Part shown: positions 5,540-17,667 of the stretch, one piece after another
Layout: every line of letters begins with the position of its first letter
Position numbering within the stretch: the first letter of the stretch is position 1
DNA from: a virus
DNA length: 17,667 nucleotides
Reading direction: 5' to 3' (one strand)
UHGV virus genome: UHGV-0114647
The notes under the pieces: model-generated
The model's database searches: none
The model's input: the letters and a program-made list of their open reading frames with translations, nothing else
What the model was told of the DNA's origin: nothing
Position numbers and translations under genes: made by a program

Positions 5540-5810
5540 AGAACAATGGGATATCAAAGAGCTAATTAGCGAAGCTGGAAATGGTAGTGAGATGTATATG
5601 ATACGTGGTCACGTCCCAGATGCACTTGCTATTGAGATGATAGACCACTACTCCAACGGATTCTATAAAGAGTTTGGAGAGCCAAATATTGAACGTACTT
5701 GGACAAAACCAGTACCAGACGGAACAGGAAACTGTTCAGTTATCTACCATATTGTAGACCCAAAGAAATGTAAATCAGCTATGGCTGTAACATTTGTAAC
5801 TTTTGATTGA
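5532..5810 (+). CDS. hypothetical protein (92 aa)
   Basis: ATG at 5532 overlapping the upstream gene by 8 nt. No recognisable motif. Confidence 0.4.
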   Translation: MAREQWDIKELISEAGNGSEMYMIRGHVPDALAIEMIDHYSNGFYKEFGEPNIERTWTKPVPDGTGNCSVIYHIVDPKKCKSAMAVTFVTFD

Positions 5811-5820
5811 GAGAAATATT

Positions 5821-6702
5821 ATGAAAACTACTATTCGAGTTCTACTTAATTCAAATTCCAAAGGTTCTCATCAAGAGACCTTCAACATTATCCAGTTCCC
5901 TTCTGGGGAGATTGGTGGTAACTTCTCAGAAGACTTAGTAGACTTTGCTGAACATGCTGCTGGTAAGATTGAAAACGTAATATTCACTGTACAAGGTTAT
6001 GACAAAGACACACTCTTTGCATTGGCTATGGCTAAAGAAGCAATTGACCGTTTGATTCCTCAGAAAGCAACCCTGAAAACTGTTGTCTTTGGATTCTTAC
6101 CAAATGCTCGCTATGACCGTCACATGTTTAAAGGTGATGCAGCAGCACTTAAAGTCTTTGCAAATCTTGTAAATGCTATGGAGTTCGATGCAGTATGTGC
6201 TCTGGATACTCACAGTAATGTTGCAGAGAATTTGTTTAAGAGCTTCTACAACCTCCCTCAAAAAGAGGCAGCAGTCCACTTTGCAAGTGACCCACGCATT
6301 GATTACTTAGTGGCTCCAGATGCAGGTGCAGCTAAGAAGACTGAAGAGGCTGCTAAAGAGGTTGAGAAACCTTACATTACAATGGCTAAGGTACGAAACC
6401 TGAAAACTGGTGAAATCACTGGTATGCGAATCCTTGATGATGTAGACTTGACAGGTAAGACCATCATGATTCTGGATGATATCTGTGACGGTGGTCGAAC
6501 ATTTATCGAGGCTGCAAAGTATCTTCGTGAAGCTGGAGCAGAACGTGTAGAACTGTATGTCACTCATGGGATTTTCTCTAAAGGTGTTGAAAATCTCCTT
6601 GACAATGGTATCGACCATATCTACACTACAAACTCACTAGGGGATGAAAAAGACCGTGGTCTTTCCCACTTCTCACAAGTGACCGTAGCAAATATTGAAT
6701 AA
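5821..6702 (+). CDS. ribose-phosphate pyrophosphokinase family protein (Prs-like); candidate ADP-ribose pyrophosphokinase
   Basis: Prs-family landmarks in order: FGFLPNARYDRH (compare FPYxxYARQDR), LDTHS (compare DLHA), LVAPDAGA (compare VVSPDxGG), and the PRPP-binding loop ILDDICDGGRT (compare DDMIDTGGT). Divergent from housekeeping Prs at several of these conserved positions. Confidence 0.8.
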   Translation: MKTTIRVLLNSNSKGSHQETFNIIQFPSGEIGGNFSEDLVDFAEHAAGKIENVIFTVQGYDKDTLFALAMAKEAIDRLIPQKATLKTVVFGFLPNARYDRHMFKGDAAALKVFANLVNAMEFDAVCALDTHSNVAENLFKSFYNLPQKEAAVHFASDPRIDYLVAPDAGAAKKTEEAAKEVEKPYITMAKVRNLKTGEITGMRILDDVDLTGKTIMILDDICDGGRTFIEAAKYLREAGAERVELYVTHGIFSKGVENLLDNGIDHIYTTNSLGDEKDRGLSHFSQVTVANIE

Positions 6703-6745: not shown

Positions 6746-8572
6746 ATGACTAAATCAATCTATGCAGTACCAGCAGGTCTTAATGCAGATGCTTATAAAG
6801 CGGGTCATATCTATCAGTATCCAGATGCTACACAGTATCTTATGTTGAACTTAACACCTCGTGGAGATAAATGGTTTAACTCTCCGTTAGAGATTGATGG
6901 TGTTGTAGCTTTTGGTATTCAGCGTTTTGTAAAAGACTATCTGGTAGACCACTGGAATGCAACGTTCTTTGAACGTGATAAGAAAGAAGCCATTGACGAA
7001 ATCTTGGAAATCATGAATGGTGTCCTTGGTGCAGATACTATTGGTCGTCAACATTGGGAAGAACTTCATGACTTGGGTTACCTACCTGTTGAAGTCTACT
7101 CTGTAGAGGAAGGTACAATTGTCCCTATGCGTGTCCCGATGATTGTCTTCAAAAATACTGTAGAGGGATTCCATTGGGTAGCTGGTTACCTTGAAGATGC
7201 TTTCTCTGCTGAAATCTGGAAAGCTTGTACGATTGCAACTATTGCACTGCATTACAAACGTATTTGTAAGCAATGGGCTGATTTAACCTGTGACAACGAC
7301 TCCCATTTACCTTGGCAGTGTCATGACTTTGCAATGCGTGGCATGTCTGGCTTCACAGATGATGCGTTTAACGCAGTAGGACACCTGACAAGCTTTAAAG
7401 GTACTGACAGCTTCCCTGCTGTCTACACTGCTAAACGTTCTTATGGTCAGTTTATGGAAGTAAGTGATATCGGCAACTCTGTACCAGCTACTGAACACTC
7501 TGTGATGTGCGCAAACATTTCATGGAATATGAAAGACTTGTCAGAGGAAGATATTCATTCACAGTACATCATGCGGTCTGATAGCTTGCTGGATGCAAAA
7601 CGTTGGCGTGGTGAGGTTAAAACCTTTGAGCATTTACTGGTAGACGTATATCCAACTGGTATTGCAAGTGTTGTTTCAGATACTTACAACTTCTGGCGTA
7701 CTGTTACAGAGATTCTGCCAGAGCTACGTAATGTAATTCTGAATCGTGATGGTAAGTTGGTAATTCGTCCAGACTCTGGAGACCCTGTTCACATTGTTAC
7801 AGGTTACAAAGCCGTTGAATGGGAAACTGCTAAGTCAATGTTCTACAAGCACATGAAAGGTCTTGCACCAGATAATACCCATCTGCATGACACAATCTTG
7901 AATTGTGAAATGTCTGATATTGGTTTTGGGTTCTCTGCTTGGTTAATCTCTGAAGGTTATGAGATGGTTGTTGAAAATGAAGATTTTGATTATATTGATA
8001 CAATCAACCTGATTACCGCTCAGAAAACTGGACAGTTTACTGTGAAGCGTATGTTAACAGCAGAAATTGATGGAGCTATCCACACGCTGTATAACATCTT
8101 TGGTGGTACTGTTAACTCCAAAGGGTACAAAGTACTGGATGAGCACATTGGACTAATCTACGGTGATTCTATCACTCTGGAAAGGGCTAATGAGATTCTG
8201 TCACGTCTTGCTGATAAAGGTTTTGCAAGTTCTAACGTAGTGTTTGGTGTAGGCTCATACACCTATCAGTACCTGACTCGTGACACCTTTGCATTTGCTG
8301 TTAAAGCAACTCTTGCACAGATGGATGGTCAAGAAATTATGCTGGCTAAAGACCCTAAAACTGACAGTGGTCTTAAGAAGTCTGCTTTTGGTGGAGTCGT
8401 CCCTATGTGGGATGGTGACAAGCTAGTAGCTGTAGATGGTTTTGGCTTTGCAGAGTTTGAAGGTGCAATTGACAATTGTCATAGTGCTTTGAAACTGGTA
8501 TTTAGTAACTCGCAACCTTATGGTTACGTTAACCTGCGTGATGTTCGAAATACTATTGACAAGCAACTTTAA
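6746..8572 (+). CDS. nadV: nicotinamide phosphoribosyltransferase family protein (NAMPT/NadV-like), 608 aa
   Basis: N-terminal DAYKAGHIYQYP (compare NAMPT DSYKxxHxxQYP); HDFAMRGMSG...HLTSFKGTDS (compare DFGYRG...HLVNFKGTD); VVSDTYNF; VIRPDSGDP; NSKGYKVL; GDSIT; FGVGSY; LTRD. About 100 aa longer than typical NAMPT. Confidence 0.8.
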   Translation: MTKSIYAVPAGLNADAYKAGHIYQYPDATQYLMLNLTPRGDKWFNSPLEIDGVVAFGIQRFVKDYLVDHWNATFFERDKKEAIDEILEIMNGVLGADTIGRQHWEELHDLGYLPVEVYSVEEGTIVPMRVPMIVFKNTVEGFHWVAGYLEDAFSAEIWKACTIATIALHYKRICKQWADLTCDNDSHLPWQCHDFAMRGMSGFTDDAFNAVGHLTSFKGTDSFPAVYTAKRSYGQFMEVSDIGNSVPATEHSVMCANISWNMKDLSEEDIHSQYIMRSDSLLDAKRWRGEVKTFEHLLVDVYPTGIASVVSDTYNFWRTVTEILPELRNVILNRDGKLVIRPDSGDPVHIVTGYKAVEWETAKSMFYKHMKGLAPDNTHLHDTILNCEMSDIGFGFSAWLISEGYEMVVENEDFDYIDTINLITAQKTGQFTVKRMLTAEIDGAIHTLYNIFGGTVNSKGYKVLDEHIGLIYGDSITLERANEILSRLADKGFASSNVVFGVGSYTYQYLTRDTFAFAVKATLAQMDGQEIMLAKDPKTDSGLKKSAFGGVVPMWDGDKLVAVDGFGFAEFEGAIDNCHSALKLVFSNSQPYGYVNLRDVRNTIDKQL

Positions 8573-11636: not shown

Positions 11637-12749
11637 ATGACTACTAAGACTAAAGCACAAATCGACGCAGAAATCTATGCACTGGTTAAAGAAGGTAAAC
11701 TGACCAAAACTGCAATCGCTCTGAAGTATAACACTTCAACCCGTTCGGTAGGTCGTGCTGTAGAGCGTCATGAAGCAACGCTGCTGTCAGGGAAAACCAA
11801 AGCAAAACCTGAAAAGACTCTGAAAGATATTGCAAAGAAAGCTAAAGCGACCAAGAAAGTATCTAAGCAGAAGCCTGTTGCAAAAGCTGTTAAAGAAGCA
11901 GTCAAAGCAGAACCTGTAAATGCTCTGCATGAAGCAATGCAGAAGAACAGCCAGATTGAGTACATGATTACTGGTGATTCTGTTATCATGACTTTCGGTG
12001 CAGAGTCTGAGATTGTTGAGTCAACTCACCCTAACTACACTGATATTGTAATGGCTGTTGTTTCAGGTGAGTACAAGAAAGCTTTTGAACTGATGAACAT
12101 TCGCAAGTCTATTGAGAACTTCACTCAGGGTGCTGTAACCATCAAAGGCGACAACCTGTATTACGGTGCTGTTCAGATGCGCTCAACTCTGGTAGACCGT
12201 ATTCTGGATATGATGAAGAAAGGTGATAATGGTTTTGTTCGACTGATTGCATTCTTCGAAAAACTGATGGAAAACCCATCAAAAGATTCTGTAGAACAAC
12301 TTTGGGGCTTTGTATCACACCTCGATGTTGAAATTGATGAAGAAGGTTATATCATCGGTTGGAAGAAAGTCACAACTCGTGGTGGTAAACTGTTTGACTC
12401 TCGTACCTGCAAAGTTCCAAATGATTTGGGTAACATTGTAGAGATGCCACGTTGGATGGTTGATAATAACCGCCATGTAACCTGCTCTCAGGGTCTGCAC
12501 GTTGGTGCTTGGAATTATGTAACTAGCTTCTCTGGTGACACTATCCTGAAAGTTCGTGTTCATCCTCGTGATGTTGTTTCAGTACCAACTGACTACAACG
12601 ACATGAAAATGCGAGCTTCCCGTTATGAAGTTGCAGCGATTGTAAATAGTCGCCGTGAAGTCATCAAAGAGTGGGATGGTTCAGAAGCACTCCACGTAGT
12701 TGTAGGTACTGCTGGTGAACTGATTTCTCAGCGTAAACGTGAAGTCTAA
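11637..12749 (+). CDS. rIIB: rIIB protein
   Basis: Immediately downstream of rIIA in the same orientation, as in T4. N-terminal region has the helix-turn-helix-like pattern expected for rIIB. Assignment is by synteny plus weak recalled similarity. Confidence 0.55.
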   Translation: MTTKTKAQIDAEIYALVKEGKLTKTAIALKYNTSTRSVGRAVERHEATLLSGKTKAKPEKTLKDIAKKAKATKKVSKQKPVAKAVKEAVKAEPVNALHEAMQKNSQIEYMITGDSVIMTFGAESEIVESTHPNYTDIVMAVVSGEYKKAFELMNIRKSIENFTQGAVTIKGDNLYYGAVQMRSTLVDRILDMMKKGDNGFVRLIAFFEKLMENPSKDSVEQLWGFVSHLDVEIDEEGYIIGWKKVTTRGGKLFDSRTCKVPNDLGNIVEMPRWMVDNNRHVTCSQGLHVGAWNYVTSFSGDTILKVRVHPRDVVSVPTDYNDMKMRASRYEVAAIVNSRREVIKEWDGSEALHVVVGTAGELISQRKREV

Positions 12750-12765
12750 TAAGTAAATTCCTAAA

Positions 12766-12793
12766 GGGGCTGCTTCGGCAGCCTTTTTTATTT
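12766..12793 (+). terminator. rho-independent terminator after rIIB
   Basis: GGCTGC-TTCG-GCAGCC hairpin followed by TTTTTTATTT. Confidence 0.65.
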
Positions 12794-12819
12794 GAAAAAT
12801 GTGCAGGTTAGTGTATAAT
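12792..12819 (+). promoter_or_regulatory. sigma70-like promoter
   Basis: TTGAAA at 12792-12797, 16 nt spacer, perfect TATAAT at 12814-12819. AGGAG RBS at 12841-12845 follows. Confidence 0.5.
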
Positions 12820-12850
12820 TGTCTGCATGTTTAACAAAATAGGAGTGCAA

Positions 12851-13399
12851 ATGAAGAAATTTGTTTTAGGTTTGTGCTTATTCTTTACAGCACATTTAGC
12901 TACAGCGTCTGACTGTCCAGAGCTTACAATCAGTCAGAAAGTTAATATGTTAAAAGCATATAACTATGGAGAAGGACAGATGGGAAAAGGTTGGGGAATC
13001 CCTTTAGCAGCTATAGCCTTACAAGAGTCACAATTAGGTGTCATGTTAGAAAATAAAAAGACTCATGATTATGGTGTTTTCCAAAATCACTTGAAGACTG
13101 TTGTAAAGCGTAACAAGGTATCTCCAAAGGTTGCTAAGAAGAAGCTAGTAAGCGACTTCCATTACTCAGCGAAAGAGGCTCATAAGGAGCTATTATTCTG
13201 GACTAAGGTTCATGGTAACCCAGATGGAAAGTACTCTATGAAGCGTGTCCTAGCTTCTTATAATGCTGGTTACAAATACAAGATTCCAAAGGCTAGACAA
13301 TACTCTCAAGATGTGTACAATAACATGAAACTGCTGGCTCAATGTGAGTTTGCAACAAACATTAAAAAGGTAAAATATGAGCGAATCAAAACAATTTGA
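12851..13399 (+). CDS. secreted lytic transglycosylase-like protein (SLT domain) with N-terminal signal peptide
   Basis: ATG at 12851. Signal peptide MKKFVLGLCLFFTAHLATA. SLT-like motifs AAIALQESQLG (catalytic Glu-Ser), DYGVFQ and ASYNAGYKY. Confidence 0.55.
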   Translation: MKKFVLGLCLFFTAHLATASDCPELTISQKVNMLKAYNYGEGQMGKGWGIPLAAIALQESQLGVMLENKKTHDYGVFQNHLKTVVKRNKVSPKVAKKKLVSDFHYSAKEAHKELLFWTKVHGNPDGKYSMKRVLASYNAGYKYKIPKARQYSQDVYNNMKLLAQCEFATNIKKVKYERIKTI

Positions 13400-14072
13400 C
13401 ATGGTTCTGTGTCATGCTTATGATATCAAGCCACTTGATTTAGATATCAGTTCTGCAAGTTGGCCAGATATTGCTAAAGCTGACTTTGCAGATACAGCAA
13501 GAAATGTTGTGTGTAGCTTTGAAGACTTCCACTCAACAAAGACACAGATTCCTTGTCAGGATTTGCTAACAGGTAAAACTGTATATGTTGGTCGTAATAG
13601 TCTTATCTTGGTTGCAAAGAACTTGGAAGAAAAACGTAAAATGGTCTTAGCAGACATTGATGGTGTTCTTACAAGCTTTGACAAGAAACTTAATGCAACT
13701 CTGTTAGATGACGGCACTTACTCACAGTATACTAACTTGGTAGACTCTCGCAGAGCTAAACCAACATATGTTTTTAACATCCTGTGTGGTATATCAAGAA
13801 ATGCTGATATAGGATTCTTAACTGCTCGTGGAGAATCACAAAGAGTTGTCACACATCTTTTCCTGAATGAGAATGTAGACAGTGATTTCCTACTGTTTAT
13901 GCGTGGATTTGGTGACAATGAGATTAGTGCAGAAAGTTTAAAAGTTCGTATGCTTCAGTCTTGCATTCTACCTTACTATGATGTAGTATGCTTTATAGAA
14001 GATACAGTGAAGAACGTGGCAAAGGTTGAAAGAATCTTACCACACATCAAAACAATGCTTGTTAAAAACTGA
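13377..14072 (+). CDS. hypothetical protein with HAD-like motif I (possible phosphatase/nucleotidase)
   Basis: MVLADIDGVLTSF resembles HAD motif I (hhhhDxDx[TV]); later GFLTARGE could be motif II. No P-loop, so not a Pnk kinase domain. Confidence 0.45.
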   Translation: MSESKQFDMVLCHAYDIKPLDLDISSASWPDIAKADFADTARNVVCSFEDFHSTKTQIPCQDLLTGKTVYVGRNSLILVAKNLEEKRKMVLADIDGVLTSFDKKLNATLLDDGTYSQYTNLVDSRRAKPTYVFNILCGISRNADIGFLTARGESQRVVTHLFLNENVDSDFLLFMRGFGDNEISAESLKVRMLQSCILPYYDVVCFIEDTVKNVAKVERILPHIKTMLVKN

Positions 14073-14083
14073 GAGAGTAAACC

Positions 14084-14548
14084 ATGCAAAACATTATTAC
14101 AGTAGCTATCGATGCTTCCGGTAACAAATCACAGGTAGTTCGTGAGATTATCAAAAGTAATTTCGATGGTAAAATCTTTCGTGCAGTAAACGTGAAAGCT
14201 GATGGTAACATTCGTGAGTATCGTGCCATGTTGAATGTCACAAAACACGTTAAGGGTGTTGGTTCAACTACTGCTCATAAAGAAAATCTGATGACTATCT
14301 ATGATATGGGTATGGCTTCAGAGTTAGGTGCAAAAGGGATTGTACAATCCGGTGCTCCTTACCGTTCTTTCAATCTGGAAACTGCTCTTATGCTTTCCTT
14401 TACAAGTGGTTCTCAAACTACCACTTACCTCTTCACAGATACTGCAACGGTTTCTGCGATTAAGGACAATACCATTAAGGCTGGCGTAGCTGCTGCTTCA
14501 AAAGCCTCAACAATGGCAGCAAATGTCCTTGCGAAAGTTCTTGGTTAA
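14084..14548 (+). CDS. hypothetical protein (154 aa)
   Basis: GAGAG RBS upstream of the ATG. Followed by a strong terminator. No recognisable motif. Confidence 0.5.
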   Translation: MQNIITVAIDASGNKSQVVREIIKSNFDGKIFRAVNVKADGNIREYRAMLNVTKHVKGVGSTTAHKENLMTIYDMGMASELGAKGIVQSGAPYRSFNLETALMLSFTSGSQTTTYLFTDTATVSAIKDNTIKAGVAAASKASTMAANVLAKVLG

Positions 14549-14557
14549 AGTTATTAT

Positions 14558-14585
14558 AGAGGCTCCTTCGGGAGCCTTTTCATTT
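14558..14585 (+). terminator. rho-independent terminator
   Basis: GGCTCC-TTCG-GGAGCC hairpin followed by TTTTCATTT. Confidence 0.6.
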
Positions 14586-14601
14586 ATGTAAGGGGTATAT
14601 T

Positions 14602-14703
14602 ATGATTAAAGTTATCAAGATAATACCATCATTGGTAATGCTCATAGTAGGGGTAGGTATCATACTTATGCTTTGCCCTGCTTTTTGGCCTTTTATCTTA
14701 TAA
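14602..14703 (+). CDS. putative micro-protein, single TM helix (33 aa)
   Basis: Below the ORF-track cutoff. AAGGGG at 14590-14595, ATG at 14602. Translates to MIKVIKIIPSLVMLIVGVGIILMLCPAFWPFIL. Confidence 0.3.
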   Translation: MIKVIKIIPSLVMLIVGVGIILMLCPAFWPFIL

Positions 14704-14722
14704 TAGTCTAGGAGATTGACAA

Positions 14723-15070
14723 ATGACATTCAAAGAATTTTGTCAAGCAGCTTTTGTAATCATGTTTTTGTTAGGTGTAGGTGCTTGGGGTGGCTATACT
14801 TACAAGACTAGCCAAGTTAACGAGAAAGAGTTGACTAATCAGAAGCTTGTTAGTGTTGCTAAAGATGCTTATCAAGAAGGTTTATCAAATCTTAGCTCCA
14901 ATTACAAAAATGATTTGAAAGATGTGCTTGCTAAAAACAAACACACCAAAGAGGTATTGAACTATGAAAAAACTAAAACAGTCTTTATTAATGATTGTGC
15001 TACTGAGCCTTATGTCAGGGTGTTCAACGAACAAAGTGAACAGTACCTTCAAAAACTCCCAAGTAAGTGA
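14723..15070 (+). CDS. i-spanin-like protein (N-terminal TM anchor, periplasmic domain)
   Basis: AGGAGA RBS at 14709-14714. N-terminal TM helix AAFVIMFLLGVGAWGGY followed by a charged, coiled-coil-like periplasmic region. 115 aa, with a lipoprotein gene embedded in another frame at its 3' end. Confidence 0.5.
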   Translation: MTFKEFCQAAFVIMFLLGVGAWGGYTYKTSQVNEKELTNQKLVSVAKDAYQEGLSNLSSNYKNDLKDVLAKNKHTKEVLNYEKTKTVFINDCATEPYVRVFNEQSEQYLQKLPSK

Positions 15071-15233
15071 GAGTGACAAGTACACTCAAGAAGAAGCACG
15101 ATATGAAGTTAAAAGCACTAAAGGCAGAGATATTGCAAGTGCTCTTGAGTTTTATCGTGATGGCTACTATGAATGTACTATTAAGGCAAACAATTTAATT
15201 GATATGATTTTGTTAGGGAATAAACAGCAATGA
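14964..15233 (+). CDS. o-spanin-like outer-membrane lipoprotein
   Basis: AAAGAGGT RBS at 14948-14955. Lipoprotein signal MKKLKQSLLMIVLLSLMSGC with Ser at +2; mature part has a C-terminal Cys. Overlaps the preceding gene by about 107 nt in a different frame. Confidence 0.5.
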   Translation: MKKLKQSLLMIVLLSLMSGCSTNKVNSTFKNSQVSESDKYTQEEARYEVKSTKGRDIASALEFYRDGYYECTIKANNLIDMILLGNKQQ

Positions 15234-15499
15234 CAGAGAAGAATGAAACATTTTTTGTGGAAGGTTATCTTCTGTTACCAAGACCAAGTAACACTTACAT
15301 GAGATTTGACATTATGCCAACGGTTATGGATGATGTAACTTGTCACATCTTTATGCAGGGTGTTTCTGCACAACTTAAGCATGTTGGAAGAGATTGCAAA
15401 ATACGTGTTGACAACCATCCTGAAATCAACGAGAATCACTACACATGGTTCGGGGAAGATTCTAAAGAAATCTATGCAGTCCTTAAAACGAGGAAATAA
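15230..15499 (+). CDS. hypothetical protein (89 aa)
   Basis: ATGA-coupled to the upstream stop. No recognisable motif. Confidence 0.45.
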   Translation: MTEKNETFFVEGYLLLPRPSNTYMRFDIMPTVMDDVTCHIFMQGVSAQLKHVGRDCKIRVDNHPEINENHYTWFGEDSKEIYAVLKTRK

Positions 15500-15992: not shown

Positions 15993-16191
15993 AAAGACTC
16001 GTCAGATTATTGCAACTGGCGTTCATGTAGGCCGTAATGAAGTAGTACCTTTTACTGAAATCTTCTCACATGAAGATAAGAGCTATACAAATTACTTGAA
16101 TAGCAAATTTTGCCGCTCAAATCTTGAAGATTTCAAGAAGACTTTTAAGAGTAATCGTACTATTATTCAAGAGGTAATCTTCAATGGCTGA
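15967..16191 (+). CDS. hypothetical protein (74 aa)
   Basis: AAAGGTGA RBS. Overlaps the upstream gene by 26 nt. Confidence 0.4.
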   Translation: MKILLIRNKKTRQIIATGVHVGRNEVVPFTEIFSHEDKSYTNYLNSKFCRSNLEDFKKTFKSNRTIIQEVIFNG

Positions 16192-16384
16192 TTTCTGCAC
16201 TAAGTGTTCTGTTGAGATGTTTGGAAAAGACACAGGGGACTTAAAAGGTCTCTTTACAAAAGCAGAGTTTGAAGCTGGTTCAGCAATGCCAGTAATCTGT
16301 GAAGGTTGTGGTGCTTTATGGGTAGACCATGAAGGTAACCGAGTTAAACCATCTGAAGATAACGAACGTTGGGAGCATTACTAA
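16184..16384 (+). CDS. small zinc-ribbon protein (66 aa)
   Basis: AGAGGT RBS. Two Cys pairs, CTKC and CEGC. Overlaps both flanking genes. Confidence 0.45.
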   Translation: MADFCTKCSVEMFGKDTGDLKGLFTKAEFEAGSAMPVICEGCGALWVDHEGNRVKPSEDNERWEHY

Positions 16385-16385
16385 T

Positions 16386-17180
16386 ATGGGTATCGTAAAA
16401 ATTATTAAAGGTGATATCTTTAAAGACTTTGATGGTAAGAAGTTTGATATCATTGGTCACGGTTGTAACTGTATGAACTTGATGCCAGCAGGTATCGCAG
16501 CAACAATTGCCAAACGTTACCCAAAAGCTTATGAAACTGACGCTGAAGTTTATGCTGCAGTAGGTGGTGAAAATCATAACCCTAAGCATCTAATGCTTGG
16601 TAACATCTCTGTAGCACGTTTTAAGCAGGGTCGAATTGCTAACCTTTACACTCAGGTTATCACTGGCAAAGATGCACGATACAACGCCTTAGAAGCAGCT
16701 TTACAGCGTCTTAACAACTACTGTAAAGTTAATCAACTTAAGAAAGTTGGGCTTCCGATGATTGGTGCAGGGATTGGTGGTCTTGATAGCATGGCTGTGC
16801 TGTCCATTATCAACCAGACTATGAAGGATGTTGACGTTTATATGTATGTCTATGAAGATAAGATGTACAGTCAGTTGACTAGTCCTGTTACTGGTTGGGA
16901 GAACTTCAGTGAGCCTCAATACTTTGATGGTGTTGCTGTGGTAGGCAAGGATAAAGTTACCCTCAAGGTGAAGCGTAATGGCAAGGTACACACCAGTTAC
17001 CCTCCGGTTGAGAAGTACAATCGGAGTAACGCTCAAGTTACCCACCCGTTACAAGGCCACCACCACAGAGCGGTAACGTTTGGTGATGATGCAAGTGTAT
17101 ATATCAATGCGACTACAGAAGAGTTTGCAGAAGATTATATCACACATGAAAACGTAAACTATGTTGAAGCACGTAACTAA
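16386..17180 (+). CDS. macro-domain protein (ADP-ribose binding/processing) with C-terminal extension
   Basis: N-terminus MGIVKIIKGDIFKDFDGKKFDIIGHGCNCMNLMPAGIAATIAKRYP matches the macro-domain opening (GDI-[TF]...D-x-I-V-N-A-A-N...G-G-V). Later GLPMIGAGIGGLD resembles the phosphate-binding glycine-rich loop. Confidence 0.6.
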   Translation: MGIVKIIKGDIFKDFDGKKFDIIGHGCNCMNLMPAGIAATIAKRYPKAYETDAEVYAAVGGENHNPKHLMLGNISVARFKQGRIANLYTQVITGKDARYNALEAALQRLNNYCKVNQLKKVGLPMIGAGIGGLDSMAVLSIINQTMKDVDVYMYVYEDKMYSQLTSPVTGWENFSEPQYFDGVAVVGKDKVTLKVKRNGKVHTSYPPVEKYNRSNAQVTHPLQGHHHRAVTFGDDASVYINATTEEFAEDYITHENVNYVEARN

Positions 17181-17209
17181 TAAGTTACCCAGATAGACAT
17201 AGACAAGCC

Positions 17210-17440
17210 CTCCAAAGTTTGAGTTTAAAATCTCAGGTAAGGGGGGCTTTTTCATTTTAAATTTGTGCAGGTATAGTTGCATAGAACTCTGGACAGATTT
17301 CTTTAGCTGAACTCCAAAGGGAAAATTCATTTCAAATTTGTGTAGGTTTAGACTCCAAAGGGATTTTTCATTTTCAATTTGTGCAGATGCAGTTGGACTC
17401 CAAAGGGAAAATTCATTTTCAGTTTGTGCAGGTAGGTAGC
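17210..17440. repeat. tandem direct repeat array, about four units of 41-100 bp
   Basis: Units begin at about 17210, 17311, 17352 and 17397, all with the core (ac)TCCAAAGGGaaaaTTCATTTtCAaaTTTGTGCAGgT. Internal units are 41 and 45 bp; the first has an insertion. A related TGTGCAGGT element lies in the promoter at 12800. Confidence 0.6.
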
Positions 17441-17607
17441 TGTAGGAAGCCAGCCCCACCACCCCCTCTTACTCCCCTTCATCCCAAAAGTCAAGAGAAA
17501 AATTTGTAGAGAACGCAAAAATAATTCTTGACTAGATTCCTGTTTTAGTGTATCCGCATACGTGCGTTCTATTCACAAAGCATCAAAAAATATTTTAAAA
17601 ATTTTTG

Positions 17608-17636
17608 TTGACTTCATAAATCCAGTCTTATAGTAT
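17608..17636 (+). promoter_or_regulatory. candidate sigma70-like promoter directed out of the window
   Basis: TTGACT at 17608-17613, then TATAGT after a 15 nt spacer or TAGTAT after 17 nt. Spacing is not ideal. Confidence 0.3.
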
Positions 17637-17667
17637 TTGCATCAACGGGAAACATCCCAACAATCCT

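Follow-up and report, generated by a model that had tools for sequence, protein, structure and literature searches.

The present analysis concerns a 17,667-nucleotide stretch of viral DNA (UHGV virus genome UHGV-0114647), referred to in its entirety as the window, and in particular a macrodomain gene near its 3' end. Two plus-strand genes occupy positions 16184-17180 of the window: an open reading frame (ORF) of 66 amino acids (aa) at 16184-16384, followed by an ORF ending at 17180 that encodes a 264-aa protein consisting of a macrodomain and a C-terminal domain (CTD). By nucleotide comparison, the source of the window is a Mooglevirus, a Felix O1-like phage of the Ounavirinae, with the macro region sharing 99% identity with that of Citrobacter phage BSwM KMM2 and 87-98% with those of other Mooglevirus genomes. 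Like other Felix O1-like phages, members of Mooglevirus are myoviruses, and their genomes are ~88 kb in length. By homology, the macro+CTD protein belongs to the phage macrodomain family of Tk.4(AdfM) and Adpp, which it represents in the Ounavirinae, and it is probably an active anti-defence hydrolase, which would remove the C1'' substituent of ADP-ribose (ADPR). The gene and its parts are as follows.

16386..17180, plus strand: macro+CTD gene, 264 aa (ORF; phrog_335, E 1.3e-105; ortholog of bas63_0095)
16386..16865, plus strand: macrodomain, residues 1-160, Poa1p/TARG1/DarG clade (Pfam PF01661, AlphaFold2, Foldseek, profile against PDB)
16458..16472, plus strand: H25-G-C-N28-C motif, invariant in 25 homologs (also Poa1p alignments)
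16485..16487, plus strand: codon 34, CCA (Pro), at the first Gly of the G-x-G ADP-ribose loop (nucleotide comparison with Ounavirinae)
16641..16655, plus strand: N86-L-Y-T-Q90 strand, with N86, T89 and Q90 invariant (hidden Markov model alignments)
16764..16787, plus strand: second glycine-rich (phosphate-binding) loop, G127-A-G-I-G-G-L-D134, with P124, G127 and G129 invariant
16866..17177, plus strand: linker and CTD, residues 161-264, an orphan alpha+beta domain

The extent of the gene is well supported by its orthologs, which share 99-96% protein identity within Mooglevirus and 62-64% in Felixounavirus (64% for bas63_0095). The ATG at 16386 is the sole conserved start codon and the N-terminus MGIVK is common to all orthologs. 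An in-frame ATG further upstream, at 16329, which would yield an overlapping 283-aa product, was considered and rejected for lack of conservation: Moogle does not have it, and Felixounavirus has a stop codon directly in front of the ATG. In the record of Shigella phage Henu12 (locus L014, 527-1378), the macro gene is drawn from this non-conserved upstream ATG (283 aa) and the 66-aa gene is omitted, which is probably an annotation error. Both genes are kept in about 250 Ounavirinae genomes and are thus real genes, rather than chance ORFs, while the full-length macro+CTD protein is found in about 256 phage records. Its Bas63 ortholog is annotated as a "putative phosphatase", in keeping with the "phosphatase" label of phrog_335, and other orthologs in GenBank are listed as "macro domain-containing protein". 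Our literature searches combining Felixounavirus with macro domain and DarTG with Bas63 found no paper on the Ounavirinae protein and no paper on that pairing, respectively.

The macro fold and the family of the protein are secure. A macro domain had been proposed in an earlier, sequence-only reading of this DNA, and this is borne out. The match to Pfam PF01661 spans residues 25-141 (E 8.2e-7, 29.4 bits versus a gathering cut-off of 22), and an AlphaFold2 model built with 25 homologs has a predicted local distance difference test score (pLDDT) of 87.8 and a predicted template modelling score of 0.86, with most of the macrodomain exceeding a pLDDT of 90. A Foldseek search with this model yielded 245 PDB matches at E<=0.001; among the 50 listed, nearly all are macrodomains, together with a few designed serine hydrolases. 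The top matches are Poa1p (6lfr, E 5.6e-11), TARG1 (4j5r, E 2.6e-10) and DarG (5m3e, E 2.2e-9; 2-6e-9 among DarG macrodomains), with template modelling (TM) scores of 0.77-0.86 on the target. When a profile of the family was compared with the PDB, BT1257, Poa1p, Mtb DarG, TARG1 and SCO6735 were all matched at about E 1e-17 to 1e-18, without clear preference. Based upon these profile and Foldseek matches, the protein is placed in the Poa1p/TARG1/DarG clade.

The catalytic residues point more specifically towards the Poa1p type of active site. His25 and Asn28 align with His23 and Asn26 of Poa1p, both of which are cited as catalytic (PMC12846349). His25 also aligns with His24 of the Adpp protein of Vibrio phage Gary, which was inactivated by an H24A mutation, as listed in Table S4 of the study describing it (bioRxiv 10.64898/2026.01.28.702374). 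Gln90 takes the place of the Lys that is catalytic in TARG1 (K84) and Taq DarG (K80); opposite the N86-Q90 strand, the hidden Markov model alignments place "LITKK" of TARG1 and "FPTKK" of Mtb DarG. Both glycine-rich ADP-ribose-binding loops are present (P34-A-G36 and G127-A-G-I-G-G132), and in the alignments the IGCGL loops of TARG1, Poa1p and DarG fall opposite loop 127-134. In the first loop, codon 34 is GGT (Gly) in KMM2, 3HA14, Sf18, HP1, Moogle, TP1 and Si3, such that all three bases differ from the CCA of the window while the flanks are identical. Among the Ounavirinae genomes examined, CCA is shared only with Shigella phage Henu12.

Residues 161-264 (~100 aa) are seen only in Ounavirinae orthologs and are absent from the macro homologs of T4, Vequintavirus and Pakpunavirus. 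The CTD resembles no known family or fold: it had no match in Pfam, and a search of the CTD-bearing model against BFVD returned its own ortholog as the sole match; weak matches to Ig-like repeat proteins were out of register and are regarded as spurious. The CTD diverges faster than the macrodomain, as macrodomain/CTD identities fall from 89/64 to 73/53 and 49/25% in successively more distant orthologs. The sequence-only reading had called attention to a His-rich stretch, QGHHHR, in a C-terminal extension. The extension exists and contains this stretch, but the histidines are not conserved: orthologs read QGHCHR, QGHSCR, HDHCLR, KGSMQR or KSNHRI, and QGHHHR was accordingly rejected as a metal-binding or functional motif.

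The function favored below would link the protein to a second locus in the window, namely a pair of Prs-like and NAMPT-like genes upstream, which had also been noted from the sequence and is indeed present.

5803..6702, plus strand: Adps, the first NARP1 enzyme (ADP-ribose pyrophosphokinase), Prs-like (Pfam Pribosyltran/Pribosyl_synth; 81% identical to bas63_0079)
6746..8572, plus strand: Namat, the second NARP1 enzyme (nicotinamide ADP-ribose transferase), NAMPT-like (75% identical to bas63_0080)

On homology grounds, this pair is a genuine NARP1. Window Namat matches the SpbetaL1 Namat structures 9W5W/9W5X at E 3e-124, versus about 1e-41 for true Nampt; these crystal structures have been described (PMC12774641). 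Furthermore, the discovery of NARP1 and its validation by deletion were made in the Felixounavirus Bas63 (bioRxiv 10.1101/2024.02.11.579819), and the pair lies at 12747-15455 of the compared Bas63 locus (L018). Ounavirinae Namat proteins have 593-608 aa and are ~100 aa longer than the crystallised SpbetaL1 Namat (496 aa); they align with the PDB entry in three separate stretches, suggesting that a segment is inserted after about residue 257. NARP1 and the macro gene are inherited together across the Ounavirinae. Adps is found at >=60% identity in about 253 phage records, compared with about 256 for macro+CTD, and the gene order Namat-rIIA-rIIB-...-macro is retained even in the most divergent, metagenomic relative. 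The gene itself is already annotated in GenBank as a macro-domain protein or phosphatase and its family has characterised members; what is new here is its conserved fusion to an orphan domain and the finding that the prototype NARP1 phages carry a macro homolog unlinked to NARP1.

Two characterised relatives offer the most direct guides to function. Adpp is a Poa1p-like macro protein encoded <=2 genes from NARP1 in 15% of NARP1 phages, and Adpp of Vibrio phage Gary (KNV71_gp137; Osterman et al.) converts ADPR-1''-phosphate to ADPR (bioRxiv 10.64898/2026.01.28.702374). Since the RES-domain defence aRES, against which NARP1 alone fails, yields ADPR-1''-phosphate, Adpp lets NARP1 overcome aRES; Table S2 of the same study lists aRES in Escherichia, Shigella, Salmonella and Citrobacter genomes, i.e. 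the host genera of the phages considered here (bioRxiv 10.64898/2026.01.28.702374). The other relative, T4 Tk.4, was renamed AdfM after a transposon screen (HIDEN-SEQ); a clean knockout is sensitive to DarTG2, and enzymatic removal of ADP-ribose from DNA has been proposed, while the phenotype itself is genetic only (bioRxiv 10.1101/2025.11.20.689424). Both of these activities had been anticipated in the sequence-only reading, which suggested that the protein might reverse DarT-type ADP-ribosylation or supply ADP-ribose to the Prs-like/NAMPT-like pair. The former corresponds to what is reported for the phrog_335 homolog Tk.4/AdfM and the latter to the reported activity of the homolog Adpp, and for the window protein both are putative. 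These functional ideas were sound, unlike the accompanying claims of a coupled two-component unit and of a His-rich motif.

We favor the interpretation that the protein is a distally encoded Adpp feeding NARP1, to which we assign a probability of roughly 0.42. It is favored because the protein has a Poa1p-type active site lacking the TARG1/DarG Lys, because Adpp provides the only biochemistry within the family, because the phage carries a true NARP1, and because aRES occurs in the host genera. Accordingly worded as a model, the pathway would begin with aRES, whose RES-type NADase activity converts nicotinamide adenine dinucleotide (NAD+) to nicotinamide and ADPR-1''-phosphate, a compound that is unusable by NARP1. 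The ADP-ribose moiety would be bound in the macro cleft formed by loop 34-36 and loop 127-134, and His25 together with Asn28 would remove whatever sits on C1'' of the distal ribose to release free ADP-ribose. With ADPR-1''-phosphate as the substrate, the macrodomain would act as a phosphatase yielding ADPR, from which the phage's own Adps and Namat, encoded 7.8 kb upstream, could rebuild NAD+.

Several observations weigh against this interpretation. Firstly, the end of Namat (8572) and the start of the macro gene (16386) are separated by 7.8 kb, 14 genes and a terminator-like site (14558-14579), so that the macro gene lies outside the NARP1 operon and falls outside the "within two genes" criterion for NARP1-AP. 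Table S1 of the NARP1-AP survey contains no enterobacterial phage and the Ounavirinae gene was not counted (bioRxiv 10.64898/2026.01.28.702374). Secondly, the co-occurrence of NARP1 and the macro gene inside one subfamily may merely reflect shared ancestry, and many phages that lack NARP1, T4 among them, carry a member of the phrog_335 macro family. Thirdly, T4 Tk.4 is the top relative in pairwise identity and its anti-DarTG2 phenotype is unrelated to NAD+ salvage. A small-molecule phosphatase also has no obvious need for an extra 100 aa, and the Pro at position 34 of the window protein might alter activity. Lastly, no biochemical data on any Ounavirinae ortholog were found in the literature.

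The third of these points leads to a tentative alternative, in which the protein would resemble AdfM and remove DarT2-placed ADP-ribose from thymidines of phage single-stranded DNA or otherwise neutralise DarT2, and NARP1 would be irrelevant. By analogy with the second, DarT-binding domain of DarG, the CTD might then serve as a DNA- or toxin-recognition module. In pairwise identity to the window protein, Tk.4 ranks highest (38% over 136 aa, E 5e-18), both proteins fall into PHROG 335, and the T4 delta-tk.4 mutant becomes sensitive to DarTG2. DarG is likewise among the top structural and profile matches, and DarG2 antitoxins have a two-domain layout of macro and toxin-binding domains. The more rapid divergence of the CTD relative to the macrodomain would also be expected of a domain tracking a variable partner. 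In addition, the common signature "HGCNC ... NLYTQxx(P/T)G" accompanies a grouping of the window protein with T4 and the rV5-like phage Murica ("HGCNC...NLYTQxxPG") in a rough neighbour-joining tree without support values. This grouping is weak, given the unsupported tree, tblastn bit scores that are equivalent across the AdfM-like and NARP1-linked groups, and the presence of the "T4-type" motifs in a NARP1-linked Acinetobacter protein. NARP1-linked macro proteins are polyphyletic in the family, and this Acinetobacter member, from phage phiAbaA1, has HGCNC/YTQ like the window protein, which indicates that motif type does not exclude Adpp function. Isoelectric points scatter within both groups and give no hint on DNA binding. 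Overall, the window protein is about equally distant from AdfM and Adpp, and its sequence by itself does not decide between their two activities.

It is unlikely that the protein is instead dedicated to other 1''-linked ADP-ribose species, i.e. that it destroys Thoeris signals (2'cADPR, 3'cADPR, His-ADPR) or clears by-products such as O-acetyl-ADP-ribose or the RNA-repair compound Appr-1''-p. Macro domains process many 1''- and 2''-substituted ADP-ribose compounds (PMC9503650), and there is a precedent in the phage enzyme RyDEP, which hydrolyses cADPR signals to ADPR that is recycled by NARP1. A polynucleotide-kinase/phosphatase-like gene is also found in the same region, at 13377-14072. Nevertheless, cleavage of Thoeris signals has not been demonstrated for any member of this phage macro family, scanning of the window proteins revealed neither KptA/Tpt1 nor a 2H phosphoesterase, and what speaks for such substrates is the general chemistry of the fold.

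The sequence-only reading had further proposed that the upstream gene, described as a CxxC...CxxC zinc ribbon, forms a two-component unit with the macro gene. The zinc-ribbon gene is evident, but the partnership is not.

16184..16384, plus strand: zinc-ribbon gene, 66 aa, C5xxC8...C39xxC42, homolog of T5.062 (phrog_2210, E 3e-38)
16371..16388, plus strand: junction, with a GGGAG Shine-Dalgarno sequence at 16371-16375 inside the zinc-ribbon 3' end, TAA at 16382-16384, a single T, and ATG at 16386-16388

An obligate, translationally coupled unit of the two proteins is very unlikely. What favors it is the junction, as the GGGAG...TAA(N0-1)ATG arrangement is also found in Mooglevirus and Felixounavirus, with both the 0-1 nt spacing and the internal GGGAG being kept even at 42% macro identity. 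The stop and start codons, which were claimed to overlap, are one base apart, and equally tight junctions occur throughout the block, where successive genes share 26 or 8 nt or leave a gap of 1 nt; given this general dense packing, the zinc-ribbon/macro junction is not special. The distribution of homologs also speaks against such a unit. The zinc-ribbon family phrog_2210 comprises 836 phage records, and its members have no adjoining macro gene in T5-like phages, where T5.062 is inside the tRNA cluster, in Vequintavirus, where the homolog precedes a tail-fibre gene, or in Pseudomonas phage PaMx35, where it is located among recombination genes. Conversely, the macro genes of T4, Murica (Vequintavirus) and PaSzW-1 (Pakpunavirus) have no adjoining zinc ribbon, and in a distant macro+CTD relative (L015) the macro gene is preceded by an unrelated gene of 103 aa, with no zinc ribbon within 12 kb. 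Adjacency was seen only in Mooglevirus and Felixounavirus, including Bas63, whose layout is the same as that of the window (gene 0094 is the zinc ribbon and 0095 the macro ortholog). The adjacency thus reflects the gene order of one lineage rather than a conserved module, the zinc-ribbon gene is probably a neighbour rather than a functional partner, and no follow-up of the pairing is warranted on present evidence. Searches of the zinc-ribbon protein against PDB, Pfam, NCBIfam and PADLOC gave no match. In Escherichia phage AKFV33 (locus L004, 2501-2695), the zinc-ribbon homolog lies between tRNA-Ser and tRNA-Gln.

A non-catalytic or impaired ADP-ribose binder, acting as a sponge or sensor in this phage, is the most improbable of the alternatives, since, despite the Pro of the window phage and Henu12 and the existence of macrodomains that are readers only (PMC9503650), the two glycine loops are in all other respects intact and invariant, as are His25, Asn28 and Gln90, residue 34 varies (A/N/K/S/D) across the wider family, and there is evident purifying selection on the gene across about 250 genomes.

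Among the major strategies of bacteria against phages are NAD+ depletion and ADP-ribosylation, and several consequences can be envisaged depending upon which activity applies. Should macro+CTD supply ADPR to NARP1, these phages would withstand the RES-type NADases against which NARP1 by itself is ineffective. Should it be an AdfM-type anti-DarT2 factor, a two-domain variant would be added to a family known from a single T4 genetic result. Under both scenarios, the sole novel component is the orphan CTD. It is also conceivable, though doubtful, that the Felix O1-like phages including Bas63 encode a distant "third enzyme" of an extended NARP1 pathway, which perhaps also acts on DarT2 DNA adducts or other 1''-linked ADP-ribose. 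If true, the published operon-proximity criterion undercounts NARP1-AP, the AdfM/Adpp family would represent a broad-spectrum eraser for several counter-defences, and the fast-evolving CTD would constitute a new module for targeting or regulation. Felix O1-like phages serve in the typing and biocontrol of Salmonella and E. coli, and because Bas63, an established genetic model, carries an ortholog, the question is directly testable.

When examining the remainder of the block, the transcription unit containing the macro gene appears to be delimited by two terminator-like elements.

14558-14579: terminator-like site, 5' bound of the transcription unit
17205..17259, plus strand: terminator-like hairpin and T-tract directly after the macro gene, ending the transcription unit (RNA fold)

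The hairpin has an RNA fold energy of -20.5 kcal/mol (z -3.4) and is followed by UUUUUCAUUUU. The non-coding gap at 17181-17667 contains four ~43-nt direct repeats at 17230-17433, with the core CTCCAAAGGGA...TTCATTT..A.TTTGTGCAGGT, which lie 3' of the terminator-like hairpin and 5' of a sigma70-like promoter at 17608-17636; tandem promoters, regulator sites or an origin are all possible roles for them. A gap of ~500 nt after the macro gene is kept in Mooglevirus and Felixounavirus, and doubtful minus-strand ORFs are annotated there in some records. An Rfam scan of the whole window gave no match. Further upstream, a 190-aa protein encoded at 12827-13399 (phrog_600, weak SLT-like match), which is annotated as a "putative lysin" in HP1, is a homolog of T4 vs.1 (compare locus L002, 1556-2101). 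With vs.1 located two genes upstream of tk.4 in T4, there is faint shared synteny around the macro gene between T4 and the Felix-like phages. At 386-2617 of the window, NrdD is one uninterrupted ORF, whereas the Bas63 gene (locus L018, 6631-9517) is annotated as a two-piece join enclosing a homing-endonuclease gene, so that the intron or intein-type insertion varies among the Ounavirinae.

Compared with known systems, the protein combines features of several. With DarG and TARG1 it shares the same clade (profile E about 3e-17, Foldseek E 2e-10 to 5e-9, TM 0.80-0.86 on the target), but the catalytic Lys of both (DarG K80, TARG1 K84) is replaced by the invariant Gln90 and TARG1 Asp125 by Gly. 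Membership in DarG proper was rejected, as the protein scores 49.6 bits versus the NCBIfam NF048014 cut-off of 250, with only profile positions 2-153 of 338 aligned. Unlike DarG, it is without a DarT-binding domain. The gene is flanked by the zinc-ribbon gene upstream and the non-coding gap downstream, with no adjoining DarT gene, and scans of the window proteins turned up no ART-like families. Yeast Poa1p, an ADP-ribose 1''-phosphate phosphatase (6LFQ/6LFR), ranks first both among the structural matches (TM 0.77 on the target) and among the sequence matches in the PDB. However, the two proteins are only 23% identical, Ser takes the place of Gln90 in Poa1p and the same strand is followed there by a long insertion, Ser30 of Poa1p corresponds to Leu32, and Poa1p is a eukaryotic enzyme for a tRNA-splicing by-product.

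The phage relatives are closer. Tk.4 has identical HGCNC and NLYTQxxPG-type motifs and, like the window gene, is a non-structural gene of a virulent enterobacterial myovirus. It differs in being a single-domain protein of 155 aa, as opposed to 264 aa with an orphan CTD, and T4 is without NARP1. Gary Adpp and the window protein share 29% identity (BLASTP E 2e-15), a Pakpunavirus homolog inside a NARP1 operon is 31.5% identical, the catalytic His of H-x-C-N-C is kept, Gln occupies the TARG1/DarG Lys position, and the window phage also encodes Adps and Namat. On the other hand, the window gene is 7.8 kb or 14 genes from NARP1 and carries the extra ~100-aa CTD, and its motifs are HGCNC/YTQ, whereas most NARP1-linked proteins have HQxNC...YGQ. 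The Adpp and AdfM interpretations are nevertheless not mutually exclusive, as macrodomains of this clade are often promiscuous.

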